Part shown: positions 17,070 to 20,922 of the stretch, piece by piece
How the letters are laid out: every line of letters starts with the position of its first letter
How positions within the stretch are numbered: the stretch's first letter is position 1
Origin: Actinomycetota bacterium
GTDB lineage: Bacteria > Actinomycetota > Actinomycetes > Mycobacteriales > Micromonosporaceae
DNA length: 24,000 nt
Direction of reading: 5' to 3'
NCBI GenBank assembly: GCA_005885555.1
Contig: VAWN01000043.1
Coordinates: 100,192 to 124,191, forward strand
Program-made: the position numbers and the translations under genes
Notes under the pieces: model-generated
The model's database searches: none
What the model saw: only the letters and a program-made list of their open reading frames with translations
Told to the model about the DNA's origin: nothing

Positions 17070-17997
17070 GCGCAGTACGCGCTGCCATGGCCTGAGCGTA
17101 GAGCCGGCCGGCGCGGTACGAGGAACGCACCAGCGGGCCGCTCATCACGCCGGCGAAGCCGATCCGCTCCGCCTCCTCGCGCAGCTCGACGAACTCCTCG
17201 GGCCGCACCCAGCGCTCGACCGGATGGTGGCGCGGAGTCGGCCGCAGGTACTGGGTGATGGTCACCAGTTCGCAGCCGGCGTCGTGCAGGTCGCGCAGCG
17301 CCTGGGACACCTCGGCCCGCTCCTCGCCCAGCCCGAGGATCAGGTTGGACTTGGTCACCAGTCCGGCGGCGCGGGCCCGGCGCAGCACGTCGAGCGAGCG
17401 CTCGTACCGGAACGCCGGCCGGATCCGCTTGAAGATCCGCGGTACCGTCTCCACGTTGTGCGCGAGCACCTCCGGCCGCGCGCCGAACACCTCGCCCAGC
17501 TGTGCCGGGTCGGCGTCGAAGTCCGGGATCAGCAGCTCCACTCCGCAGCCGGGCAGCAGCTTGTGGATCTGCCGGACGGTCGCCGCGTAGAGCCACGCGC
17601 CGCCGTCGGGCAGGTCGTCGCGCGCCACGCCGGTCACGGTCGCGTACTTCAGTCCCATCGTGGCCACCGACTCGGCCACCCGGCGCGGTTCGTCGGCGTC
17701 GAACTCGGCCGGCCGGCCGGTGTCGATCTGGCAGAAGTCGCACCGCCGGGTACATTGATCGCCGCCAATGAGGAAGGTGGCCTCGCGGTCCTCCCAGCAT
17801 TCGTAGATGTTGGGGCAGCCGGCTTCCTGGCAGACGGTGTGCAGACCCTCCCGCTGCACCAGCCCGCGCAGTGCGGTGAACTGCGGCCCCATCCGCGCCG
17901 TCACCTTGATCCAGGGCGGCTTGCGTTCGATGGGGGTCTCCGCGTTACGCGCTTCGATGCGCAGCATGCGGCGGCCGTCGGGCTGGGCGAGGGTCAC
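17065..17997 (-). CDS. lipA: lipoyl synthase (radical SAM)
   Basis: Has '[12 protein letters not shown]' and '[12 protein letters not shown]' (auxiliary cluster), '[10 protein letters not shown]' (CX3CX2C radical-SAM cluster) and a C-terminal 'RSSY'. I prefer the GTG at 17997, which gives '[18 protein letters not shown]'. In-frame alternatives are 18018, 17967 and 18063. Confidence 0.92.
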
Positions 17998-18094
17998 AAG
18001 CGCAGCGTACGCCCTCATCAGCCGAAACCGGACGGTGGAAAGCGGTGGGGCGACGAGGGTCACGTCCGGTAGCCTGGGCGGTCACGGCGTTGAC

Positions 18095-18295
18095 GGAACC
18101 GAGTAGCGCGCCGACCCGCCAGTCGAGAGAGCCGCCGGTAGCTGGGAAGGCGGTCTGGCGCCGGCGCGTGAAGACACTCCCGAGCCGCGGCACGGCAGAG
18201 AGGCCGTCCGTTCCGGGCGGCGAAGGTGTGGTGGCACCGCGAGGCACCCTTCTCGCCCGCACCTCCGAAGGGGACACAACCATCGGAGGTGACCA
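18095..18295 (+). promoter_or_regulatory. T-box riboswitch leader, Asp (GAC) specifier, translational (SD-sequestering) type
   Basis: Stem I carries AGUA (18103-18106) opposite a GAA-GAC-A specifier loop (18170-18176). An AGAGA-containing bulge (18121-18131) and a distal loop (18137-18148) follow. There is an F-box-like CCGUUC (18208-18213). The T-box core is GGUGUGG-UGGCACC-GCGAG (18225-18243). In the antisequestrator, helix A2 is GCGAG/CUCGC and helix A1 is GGUGUGG/CCGCACC (18257-18263). A competing 9-bp helix, CACCUCCGA (18260-18268) / UCGGAGGUG (18283-18291), buries the SD 5 nt before the ATG at 18296. Confidence 0.85.
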
Positions 18296-19516
18296 ATGAA
18301 CCGCATCCTTTCCACGCAGCTGCCCGAGCACGCCGGGCAGACCGTGACGCTGGCCGGCTGGGTACACCGGCGTCGGCTGCTCAAGTCGGTCGGCTTCCTG
18401 GTCCTGCGCGACCGGGCCGGCCTGGCCCAGGTGGTTGCCGCGCCGCCGGCGCTCGCCGCCTTTCCGGAAGAGACGGTGGTACTGGTGACCGGCGTGGCCA
18501 CGGTCAACCCGGCCGCCCCGGGCGGCGTGGAGGTCGCCGGGCCGACCATCGTCGCGTTGACCGACCCGGCGCAGCCGCCGCCGTTCGACCTGTACCGTCC
18601 CGAACTCGCCGCCGCCCTGCCGACCCTGCTCGACCATGCACCGGTGGCGCTGCGCCATCCGCGGCTGAGCGCGTTGCACCGGTTGTCGGCCAGAGCCGTG
18701 GCCGGGTTCCGTCAGGCGCTCGACGCGCTGGACTTCATCGAGATCCACACGCCGAAGCTGGTCGCCTCGGCGACCGAGTCCGGCGCCAACGTGTTCGGCA
18801 TCGACTACTTCGGCCGTCCCGCATACCTCGCGCAGAGCCCGCAGTTCTACAAGCAGATGATGGTCGGGGTCTTCGAGCGGGTCTACGAGGTCGGGCCGGT
18901 GTTCCGGGCCGAGCCGCACGACACGGTACGGCATCTGGCGCAGTACACGTCGCTGGACGCCGAACTCGGGTTCATCACCGACCACCGCGAGGTCATGGCG
19001 GTCGTCCGTTCCGTCGTGGCCGGAATGCTCGACGGCACCGGCGTCGAGGTGCCCGCCGAGATCCCCGCGATCCACTTCGCCGACGCCATGGACCTGCTCG
19101 GTGCCGACGAGCCCGACCTCGCTCCGGCGCACGAGCGCTGGCTGGGTGAGTGGGCGGTGCGGGAGTACGGCAGCGAACTGCTGTTCGTCACCGGGTACCC
19201 GATGGTCAAGCGGCCGTTCTACACCCACCCGGAACCCGGCCGGCCCGGTTACTCCAACAGCTTCGACCTGCTGTTCCGGGGGATGGAGATCGTCACCGGC
19301 GGCCAGCGGCTGCACCGGTACGGCGACTATGTGTCGGCGCTGCACGGCCAGGACCTCGCGCCGTACGAGGCGTACCTGCAGGCGTTCCGGCACGGGATGC
19401 CGCCGCACGGCGGCTTCGCGCTGGGGCGGGAGCGGTTCGTGGCGCGACTGACCGGGGCGGCCAACGTCCGGCAGACCACCCTGTTCCCGCGGGACCTGCA
19501 CCGCCTGTCGCCGTGA
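18296..19516 (+). CDS. aspS: aspartate--tRNA ligase, archaeal/eukaryal type (type 2, 406 aa); second-copy AspRS
   Basis: N-terminal OB fold ('GQTVTLAGWVHRRRLLKSVGFLVLRD'). Class IIb motifs 'QSPQFYKQMMV', 'GPVFRAEPHDTVRHLAQYTSLDAE' and 'GGFALGRER'. The C-terminal 'LFPRDLHRLSP' is typical of archaeal-type AspRS. The upstream T-box specifier is the Asp codon. Confidence 0.85.
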   Translation: MNRILSTQLPEHAGQTVTLAGWVHRRRLLKSVGFLVLRDRAGLAQVVAAPPALAAFPEETVVLVTGVATVNPAAPGGVEVAGPTIVALTDPAQPPPFDLYRPELAAALPTLLDHAPVALRHPRLSALHRLSARAVAGFRQALDALDFIEIHTPKLVASATESGANVFGIDYFGRPAYLAQSPQFYKQMMVGVFERVYEVGPVFRAEPHDTVRHLAQYTSLDAELGFITDHREVMAVVRSVVAGMLDGTGVEVPAEIPAIHFADAMDLLGADEPDLAPAHERWLGEWAVREYGSELLFVTGYPMVKRPFYTHPEPGRPGYSNSFDLLFRGMEIVTGGQRLHRYGDYVSALHGQDLAPYEAYLQAFRHGMPPHGGFALGRERFVARLTGAANVRQTTLFPRDLHRLSP

Positions 19517-19518
19517 AT

Positions 19519-19562
19519 CGTCAACTCGGACTTGACGCGCCGGCGTCAACCCACACTTGACG
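19519..19562 (+). promoter_or_regulatory. two tandem 19-bp palindromes CGTCAA-n7-TTGACG (candidate operators / alternative hairpins)
   Basis: CGTCAActcggacTTGACG lies at 19519-19537 and CGTCAAcccacacTTGACG at 19544-19562, with 25 bp between centres. The inner arms can also pair (TTGACGC gccg GCGTCAA, 19532-19549). The array ends 1 nt before the ATG at 19564. No SD is visible. Confidence 0.6.
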
Positions 19563-19563
19563 C

Positions 19564-20268
19564 ATGACTCCACTCACCGTGAAGCTGCAGGAGCTGATCG
19601 ACCAGATCGAGGCCGACCTGCCCGACGCGGATCCTGTCGCCAAGATCGGCGAGGCCCGGCTGCGCAGCCGTACCCTTGTCGATCTCGGCGACCAGCTCGT
19701 CGACCACTACGTGCACGCGGCCCGCGCGGACGGCGCCTCGTGGAGCCAGATCGGCGACGCGCTCGGCGTCACCAAGCAGGCCGCCCAGCAACGCCGGTCC
19801 GACCCGCAGTTCGAGCGGTACACCGGCCGGGCGCGGCACGTCGTCGTACTGGCGCAGGACCGGGCGCGCACGCTCAAGCACGACCGGATCGACACCGGCC
19901 ACCTGCTACTCGGCCTGCTCGGCGAGCCGGACGGGCTGGCGGCGAAGGTGCTCGTCTCGCTGCTCGGCTCGCTCGACCCGGTCTCCGCGGCGGCGCACGC
20001 GGCGCTGACCCCCGGGGAGGGCAAGCCGCCGAGCGGGCACCTGATGCTCACCGAGGACGCCAAGCACACCCTCGGCCTGTCCGTCGAGATCGCCCTCGAC
20101 ATGAGCCACAACTACGTCGGTACCGAACACATCCTGATCGCACTGACGCGGATCCCGCAGGGGCAGGCCGCCCGGATCCTGACGGAGCTGGGCGTGACGC
20201 ACGACCGTGCGTACGACGCGGTCTCGGCCGCGCTGGTCGGGTACCAGCACAAGGCGCGCAAGACCTGA
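19564..20268 (+). CDS. ClpC2-like protein: N-terminal HTH-like region + Clp N-terminal (Clp_R) repeat domain, no ATPase module
   Basis: The C-terminal 150 aa align by eye to the ClpC N-domain ('FERYTGRARHVVVLAQDRARTLKHDRIDTGHLLLGLL.E.DG.AAKVL' and 'SGHL.LTEDAKHTLGLSVEIALDMSHNYVGTEHILIAL'). The N-terminal part contains 'GASWSQIGDALGVTKQAAQQR', as I recall it from mycobacterial ClpC2 (Rv2667). Confidence 0.75.
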   Translation: MTPLTVKLQELIDQIEADLPDADPVAKIGEARLRSRTLVDLGDQLVDHYVHAARADGASWSQIGDALGVTKQAAQQRRSDPQFERYTGRARHVVVLAQDRARTLKHDRIDTGHLLLGLLGEPDGLAAKVLVSLLGSLDPVSAAAHAALTPGEGKPPSGHLMLTEDAKHTLGLSVEIALDMSHNYVGTEHILIALTRIPQGQAARILTELGVTHDRAYDAVSAALVGYQHKARKT

Positions 20269-20277
20269 GCCGCGAGA

Positions 20278-20922
20278 TCAGAGCAGCATCGGCAGGTGGC
20301 GCTCGACGACCGGCAGCATCTGCGCGACGGTCACCTCGCGACCCAGCTCCCTGGACAGCGAGGTGACCGCGGCGTCGGTGATGCCGCAGGGCACGATGCG
20401 GTCGAAGCGGGTCAGGTCGCAGTCGCAGTTGAGGGCGAAGCCGTGCAGCGTCGTGTTGCGGGCGACGCGGATGCCGATCGCGGCCACCTTCCGGTCCGGT
20501 CCGCGGTCGTCGGCGGGTACCCACACCCCGGTGCGCCCCTTGATCCGCTGCGCCGACGGCACGCCGACCTCGGCGCAGACCGCGATGAGCATGGCCTCCA
20601 CCCGGCGCACGTAGGCCACGACGTCGAGGCGGCCGGCCGTAAGGCGCAGGATCGGATACCCGACGATCTGCCCCGGTCCGTGCCAGGTGATCTTCCCGCC
20701 CCGGTCGGTGTCCACCACAGGGGTACCGTCCAGCGGCCGCTCCCACGCTTCGGTGCGCTTTCCGGCGGTGTACACGTCGCGGTGTTCGAGCAGCAGAACC
20801 GTAGGCGGCGCAAGCCCTTCAGCCACCGCGGCGTGCAGCCGGCGCTGCTCGTCCCACGCGTCCTGGTAGTCGACGAGCCCCGGAAGGCGGACGGGCACGG
20901 GAGTCTGCACCGCGGTGGTCAT
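20278..20922 (-). CDS. lipB: lipoyl(octanoyl) transferase
   Basis: Has '[14 protein letters not shown]', '[19 protein letters not shown]', '[17 protein letters not shown]' and 'IVPCGI', which are canonical LipB motifs (Cys/Lys dyad). Confidence 0.92.

Follow-up and report, generated by a model that had tools for sequence, protein, structure and literature searches.

The 24,000-nucleotide stretch of DNA analysed here (the window; contig VAWN01000043.1 of the Micromonosporaceae assembly GCA_005885555.1) carries on its forward strand, at 19564..20268, a clpC2-like gene of a subfamily that we call B. The locus is a further member of the known ClpC2 system, from a less-studied branch, and the gene product, a ClpC2-family protein, probably acts both as repressor of its own promoter and as a decoy for the N-terminal receptor domain of ClpC1. 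ClpC2, which blunts the action of antituberculars that target ClpC1 and may link phosphoarginine (pArg) signalling to transcription, is under active study. In kind the locus holds nothing new: it displays an operator-plus-repressor module that is conserved far beyond mycobacteria and that comes in two old subfamilies. Worth a specialist's glance are its membership of subfamily B, the clade-wide loss of a phenylalanine in combination with a fast-evolving groove, and the evidence that a helix of the N-terminal domain reads the operator.

Domain architecture

The open reading frame (ORF) 19564-20268 begins with ATG and encodes 234 amino acids plus a stop codon; its assignment draws on the list of ORFs, on Pfam, on matches to PDB sequences and on an AlphaFold2 model. 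Pfam recognises Clp_N twice (E-value 9.5e-24) and finds no AAA+ domain in the 234-aa protein, at whose last residue the ORF ends, and the NCBIfam models for ClpB, ClpK and ClpG are matched in their N-domain part alone, far below cut-off. The original prediction had described a stand-alone ClpC N-domain protein without AAA+ module, and this description is borne out. The same can be said of the ClpC2 architecture that it proposed: residues 3-69 match the crystal structure 8ADA of the N-domain of Rv2667, the ClpC2 of Mycobacterium tuberculosis (Mtb; Rv2667 residues 8-72; phmmer against PDB sequences, E 4.4e-8), and the C-terminal part has the fold of the ClpC1 N-domain (template modelling (TM) score 0.91). 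Its account of published ClpC2 work, with binding of cyclomarin A, repression of its own promoter and de-repression by the drug, was also accurate (PMC10030653). Both Mtb and M. smegmatis ClpC2 are built in this way, from a dimerising N-domain and a C-domain resembling the N-terminal domain (NTD) of ClpC1, without AAA+ module. The AlphaFold2 model of the complete protein reaches a mean predicted local distance difference test (pLDDT) of 87, with a helical N-domain, a low-confidence linker at residues 79-81 and values above 90 across most of the C-domain.

The N-terminal dimerisation and helix-turn-helix (HTH) domain comprises residues 1-80 (19564..19803, forward strand). The salt bridge D46-R57 of the Mtb ClpC2 N-domain dimer (PMC10030653) has its counterparts in D43 and R54 of the window protein, so that both residues are kept. 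A homodimer prediction for residues 1-80 scored 0.54, against 0.00 for the best control, with at least 81% of contacts in common between runs and a partner pLDDT of at least 76. Of 30 proteins whose structures are pairs of one chain, 20 attained the mark of 0.54, as did 1 of 23 whose structures are single chains. The model supports binding, but because the 8ADA dimer had already been solved, the pass speaks for likeness to 8ADA and not for binding by this particular copy. Left free by the predicted interface is the putative recognition helix GVTKQAAQQRR (residues 68-78; 19765..19797, forward strand), for which conservation and co-variation with the operator argue: across 156 ClpC2-like proteins from both subfamilies, K71, Q72, A73, A74 and Q75 vary little or not at all, and the motif SW..IG...GV[ST]KQAAQ[QK]R is common to groups A and B. 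Pfam gives a weak, sub-threshold HTH_23 match at residues 54-79, and the HTH-like segment quoted in the original prediction, SWSQIGDALGVTKQAAQQR, corresponds to residues 59-77.

The C-terminal, ClpC1-N-domain-like decoy domain extends over residues 83-234 (19810..20265, forward strand). Among PDB sequences (phmmer), residues 83-231 match the Mtb ClpC1 N-domain (E 1.8e-33), the ClpC2 C-domain of Streptomyces thermoviolaceus (9P2P; E 8.5e-21) and the Mtb ClpC2 C-domain (8AD9; E 3e-15). In a Foldseek comparison, the modelled domain superposes on ClpC1 NTD structures with a TM score of 0.91, a root mean square deviation of 1.3-1.7 Å and 46-49% identity, as opposed to 34% and 37% identity with the ClpC2 C-domains of Mtb and M. 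smegmatis. The ClpC1-like end ...GYQ is also kept; in ClpC1, however, this domain is joined to AAA+ rings. These domain homologies are shown at the level of sequence, as are, described below, the identity and position of the operators, an intact pArg pocket and the absence of the chief anchor for cyclomarin and rufomycin.

Operators and promoter

The ClpC2 operator published by Taylor et al., CGTCAAC-n5-GTTGACG, is located 1-2 nt before the ORF, is often repeated further upstream and overlaps the -35 and -10 elements of a leaderless mRNA (PMC10030653); a double operator is bound about 24-fold more tightly than a single one (Anderson et al.). Two such sites, neither assigned to a strand, lie in the 47-bp spacer between the stop codon of the preceding gene aspS2 (TGA 19514-19516) and the ATG at 19564. 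Operator 1, CGTCAACtcggaCTTGACG, occupies 19519..19537 and operator 2, CGTCAACccacaCTTGACG, occupies 19544..19562, ending 1 nt before the ATG. Each has one mismatch to the published site, and in both this sole deviation is a C in place of the G that opens the right half.

When the 6.7-Mb genome was searched for the published 19-mer with at most one mismatch, six sites were found, and only the clpC2 locus has them as a tandem pair. The exact core GTCAAC-n5-[GC]TTGAC occurs genome-wide only at this locus and at one intragenic site; that other match, GTCAACgcggcCTTGAC (G000:C178:55887-55903, G000 being the assembly of the window), falls within long open frames and is probably a product of chance. 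The operator-like palindromes that had been noted directly upstream of the gene are accordingly no chance occurrence; they are copies of the published operator, doubled and placed as is usual for ClpC2 genes, and as in M. smegmatis, where it is likewise doubled; the operator has the same place in Mtb. Two equivalent sites at the same position precede about 35 other full-length ClpC2-like genes from many actinobacterial families (Nocardia, Saccharopolyspora, Amycolatopsis, Actinomadura, Micromonospora, Streptomyces, Kitasatospora and further genomes), in a survey that drew on a scan of genome contigs, which returned mostly ClpC1 genes. An RNA attenuator was considered as well, but as the sites match the experimentally defined ClpC2 operator, that reading was rejected and the palindromes were interpreted as DNA operators.

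Elements of a promoter may be discerned inside the operators: the right half of operator 1 provides a -35-like TTGACG (19532-19537), and CACACT within operator 2 (19552-19557; -12..-7), which keeps A-11 and T-7, is a possible -10 element. The ATG of clpC2 has no Shine-Dalgarno sequence, and a single nucleotide separates it from operator 2.

From these features we infer a mechanism of the following kind. The four-helix N-terminal domain would dimerise and offer the helix GVTKQAAQQR to the two pseudo-palindromic operators, which fill the 47-bp spacer and would lie over the promoter from which a leaderless mRNA starts. The C-terminal domain would mimic the N-domain of ClpC1 and bind the same partners. 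Binding of such a ligand may loosen the oligomer, upon which the DNA would be released and the protein would accumulate; the accumulated protein would then soak up the ligand and spare ClpC1.

Two subfamilies and the reading of the operator

A FastTree phylogeny of the C-domain (142 columns, with many weak forks) separates ClpC2-like proteins into two groups. Group A contains proteins of Nocardia, Saccharopolyspora and Micromonospora and most of those from Streptomyces; group B contains the window protein, and the ClpC1 N-domains are nested within it. The split rests on signature columns as much as on the tree. It is mirrored in the signature columns of the N-domain, where the window protein reads IGDALGV...QQR and the Mtb and M. 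smegmatis proteins read IGKSMGV...QKRF (the Mtb N-domain has the group A signature IGKSMGV), and can therefore not be attributed to a domain swap.

The two groups bear on the question of which domain reads the DNA. As the DNA contact, Taylor et al. put forward a helix of the C-domain that carries R185 and R189; mutation of these arginines lowers DNA binding by Mtb ClpC2. In group A the two columns hold Arg in 27/29 and 26/29 sequences, respectively. In group B the R189 column holds Asp, Glu or Gly in 108 of 127 sequences, and yet groups A and B share their operator despite this difference. On the side of the N-domain, helix and operator vary together: all six loci with TRQAAQKR (L017, L018, L022, L042, L062 and L108), in which Arg replaces Lys71, have the operator TGTCAAC...GTTGACA, with T/A and not C/G outermost, and both loci with KQAARKR have GACAAC...GTTGTC, although the loci of each kind are related among themselves and these counts do not represent independent events. 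The co-variation points to the N-domain HTH as the putative sequence reader, with which the HHpred-based HTH assignment in the RelI paper agrees.

It is conceivable, if still rather tentative, that the window gene represents an uncharacterised subfamily B that keeps the operator and the N-domain helix, has no C-domain arginines and, in the clade of the window, has also dispensed with the Phe anchor. If this holds, several consequences would follow. Operator recognition in the ClpC2 family would be a task of the N-domain HTH (the helix change K to R accompanies an operator change of CGTCAAC to TGTCAAC, the change Q to R one of GTCAAC to GACAAC); the clade of the window, with its fast-evolving groove, would sense a different ligand of the ClpC1 N-domain; and two ClpC2 paralogues could share one genome, insulated from each other by a switch of recognition helix and operator. 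Devoid of the proposed DNA-contact arginines and, in the window's clade, of the drug-anchoring Phe, subfamily B lends itself to asking which of the two domains recognises the operator and what the ancestral trigger was.

Ligands of the C-terminal domain

In mycobacteria, ClpC2 is a dedicated sensor and sponge for cyclic peptides of the cyclomarin/rufomycin type, and the original prediction put the window protein forward as a candidate for such a role; it might even serve the self-protection of a producer. The ClpC2 proteins of Mtb, M. smegmatis and S. thermoviolaceus bind both cyclomarin A and rufomycin and are induced by both. Cyclomarin A is contacted in Mtb ClpC2 by F96, F172, E181 and Q94, the first three of which correspond to F2, F80 and E89 of ClpC1 (PMC10030653). 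Of these contacts, F96 has its equivalent, F83, in the window protein. The contact set as a whole is not preserved: F80 (Mtb F172) is replaced by Leu162, E89 (Mtb E181) by Gly171 and P79 by Met161, which makes the antibiotic sponge the weakest part of the original prediction. P, F and E occupy these three ClpC1 positions in 25/25 of the ClpC1 N-domains sampled, and the F80-equivalent Phe is kept in 118/157 ClpC2-like proteins. In the 21-member clade of the window protein (Shimodaira-Hasegawa-like support 95), by contrast, Leu, Met, Val or Thr takes its place, with two exceptions. Even the conservative change of F to Y at this position lowers binding by ClpC1 roughly 10-fold, and it is the probable reason why S. 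thermoviolaceus ClpC2 binds more than 35-fold more weakly.

The genome is rich in nonribosomal peptide synthetase (NRPS) modules, with 45 condensation-domain matches on at least nine contigs, but no NRPS module occurs on the 124-kb contig of the gene, and a search for the Trp-prenyltransferase (Trp_DMAT) of a cyclomarin/ilamycin-type cluster, conducted without a positive control, gave no match. The condensation domains were matched to no products, and they neither support nor exclude self-protection of a producer. A nitric-oxide-synthase domain was observed inside a 1173-aa open frame at G000:C19:33264-34373; contig C19 holds no NRPS module.

The pArg pocket is defined in Mtb ClpC2 by T100 and T197, and is intact in the window protein, with T87 and T187 at these positions and E188 beside them; the columns hold T in 156/157 and E in 154/157 homologues. 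S. thermoviolaceus ClpC2 (the 9P2P family), which is not mycobacterial, binds pArg and thereby leaves the DNA, and its pocket residues are conserved in the window protein, as are the pocket threonines and the N-domain salt bridge of the Mtb and M. smegmatis proteins. The second pocket of ClpC1 is degraded (E31 is replaced by Gly112), as it is in mycobacterial ClpC2; both E31 and F80 are kept in all 25 ClpC1 NTDs sampled. Conservation within the C-domain is highest in two segments of the pArg pocket, 83-103 and 182-197, and lowest in residues 151-181, which correspond to the cyclic-peptide groove of ClpC1. Given the loss of the Phe anchor, the intact pArg pocket and the fast evolution of the groove, we rank endogenous ligands above cyclomarin-type peptides: pArg-tagged proteins or other endogenous ClpC1 clients are, by a modest preference, the probable trigger in the clade of the window, and cyclomarin-type peptides are a less likely one, for which the odds appear rather poor. 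The sensing of pArg or of proteotoxic stress would accordingly be more likely than the sponging of cyclomarin, and a dedicated antibiotic sponge of the mycobacterial kind, with or without a role for a producer, is unlikely here.

Points against a ClpC2-type self-repressor

Several observations weigh against the reading of the gene as a ClpC2-type self-repressor and decoy. Measured from start to start, the operators are 25 bp apart in the window; in all other loci, the nearest relatives among them (L093 and L122 with 28 bp, L125 with 29 bp), the distance is 28-29 bp. Because of this shorter spacing, only 14 nt separate the -35-like TTGACG from the -10-like CACACT; a scan of 17900-20500 with the sigma-70 consensus returned no promoter, a result that neither supports nor excludes the one proposed above. 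Judged by its signature columns and its place in the tree, the window gene is a member of the paralogous subfamily B and not an orthologue of Rv2667, and S. thermoviolaceus ClpC2, 63% identical to Rv2667, is of the Rv2667 type, unlike the window protein. R185 and R189, the proposed DNA contacts of Mtb ClpC2, are replaced by Glu175 and Asp179. The acidic tip of the C-terminal helix alpha-8, which in S. thermoviolaceus ClpC2 mediates C-domain dimerisation and, in the dimer, plugs the pArg pocket, gives way to a basic tail, QHKARKT. Finally, the ratio of nonsynonymous to synonymous substitution rates (dN/dS; Nei-Gojobori, three pairs within the clade) amounts to 0.46-0.67 for the C-domain, which could mean relaxed constraint; that of the N-domain, 0.13-0.16, indicates strong purifying selection and speaks for the reading.

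Genomic context

Directly upstream of clpC2 lies aspS2 (18296..19516, forward strand; NF003483, 487 bits), which encodes a short aspartyl-tRNA synthetase (AspRS) paralogue of the non-discriminating type and whose stop codon is 2 nt away from operator 1; the main AspRS, of bacterial type, is encoded elsewhere in the genome, on contig C126. aspS2 is preceded by a T-box leader (18081..18263, forward strand; RF00230, 51.1 bits, E 8.4e-10), with a GAC (Asp) specifier following the conserved GAA of the specifier loop in the alignment. Its score is below the Rfam gathering score of 93, so that it is seen only with an E-value threshold; at gathering thresholds Rfam has no match in the window. Downstream, lipB (20278..20922, reverse strand; Pfam LplA-B_cat) converges on clpC2, the two stop codons being 9 bp apart (20266-20280). 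In locus L122 the clpC2 and lipB ORFs overlap by 4 nt. A scan of 17900-20500 for terminator-like sites found none, either between aspS2 and clpC2 or between clpC2 and lipB.

The linkage to a T-box-controlled aminoacyl-tRNA synthetase, which had looked unusual in the original prediction, is real, and one might suppose that clpC2 and aspS2 form a functional unit, be it by read-through co-transcription, by a response to the charging of tRNA-Asp or as a joint cassette. The closeness of the aspS2 stop codon to operator 1 and the absence of a terminator-like site between the genes would suit such a unit. So would the gene order lipA, T-box-aspS2 >, clpC2 >, < lipB, MMPL, which the same-genus genome G001 and metagenome contigs (proteins 75-99% identical) have retained; the order from lipA to lipB is kept in all six close-clade contigs and genomes. 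Other observations speak against it. In G005, G008 and G019, which represent three further genera of the family, aspS2 stands beside lipB with a hairpin and without clpC2, and no AspRS gene neighbours any of the approximately 35 other ClpC2 loci. In two related metagenome contigs, L122 (3299-3967) and L123 (3055-3771), aspS2 is split into pieces of 71 and 149/165 aa, and clpC2 and its operators are intact. An internal AUG without a Shine-Dalgarno sequence would, moreover, be poorly translated from a read-through mRNA. A functional unit with aspS2 is therefore improbable.

Since aspS2-lipB occurs elsewhere without clpC2 and the other ClpC2 loci have no AspRS gene, we conclude that clpC2 was inserted later behind an older aspS2, and that the pair can be lost. 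G002, a 91% complete genome of the same genus, has no clpC2, and there lipA adjoins lipB. The 280-bp gap between these genes (L126, G002:C1, ~1220-1500) contains a T-box stem I-like sequence, GAGAGAGCTGCCGGTAGCTGGG, and this apparent remnant suggests a deletion of aspS2 together with clpC2. The panel of related genomes also included the unpublished G031, which entered one tally and on which no other statement made here depends. We read the neighbourhood of clpC2 and the T-box aspS2 as an incidental, secondary and lineage-specific juxtaposition; read-through may occur, as no terminator-like site separates the genes. Some AspRS-like matches were met beside ClpC1 genes, but these are 24-29% identical, adjoin ClpC1 and not ClpC2, and were set aside; we take them to be LysRS (lysyl-tRNA synthetase) genes.

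Decay and other functions

The fast evolution of the C-domain could alternatively be the mark of a decaying paralogue, whose C-domain has no ligand any more and which retains autoregulation only. In favour of this explanation are the dN/dS contrast between the C-domain (0.46-0.67) and the N-domain (0.13-0.16), the coincidence of the most variable stretch, 151-181, with the cyclic-peptide groove, and the missing gene in G002. Nevertheless, the reading frame of clpC2 is intact, together with the operators, in every clade member examined; dN/dS is still below 1 in the C-domain; the fold of that domain is predicted with a pLDDT mostly above 90; and its best conserved segments are those of the pArg pocket. 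A decaying paralogue thus seems quite improbable, and a ClpC2-type self-repressor and decoy remains the preferred reading.

A RelI-like antitoxin, or a general HTH regulator of other genes in place of a ClpC1 decoy, is the least credible option: the N-domain does match the RelI structure 9SDC among PDB sequences (E 2e-6), and RelI is described as derived from ClpC2, but neither of the adjacent genes, aspS2 and lipB, encodes a RelS-like toxin, a full C-domain is present and the operator core occurs at no other intergenic position of the genome. RelI (Rv2664) itself has a homologous HTH domain in about 85 aa without Clp_N and is paired with the RelS toxin, whereas the window protein has 234 aa, a Clp_N domain and no toxin.

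Other Clp_N proteins of the genome

Besides the window gene, the assembly holds ClpC1 and ClpB (contigs C138 and C29), one more ClpC2-like gene, which is divergent, and a pair of further stand-alone Clp_N proteins. The ClpC2-like gene (L010, on G000:C90) runs from about position 2367 to the end of its contig, where it is truncated. It is closest to group A (42% identity to a Micromonospora protein), and its C-domain is without the F2-equivalent motif. Its N-domain helix reads KQAARKR, and its ATG follows, at a distance of 1 nt, a variant operator of its own, CGACAACttatgGTTGTCC; the sequence preceding the gene is partly masked; the same pair of helix and operator recurs in Pseudonocardia eucalypti (L041).

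ClpC3-type stand-alone Clp_N proteins are, like the window protein, small look-alikes of the ClpC1 NTD that compete for its ligands. To our knowledge, they have no N-terminal DNA-binding domain. Proteins resembling this type are the two other stand-alone Clp_N proteins, encoded at G000:C172:12023-12841 (reverse strand) and G000:C187:96324-97154. One of the pair begins with MFERF, like ClpC1, and has an insertion of about 45 residues between its repeats; the other bears a C-terminal coiled-coil-like extension.

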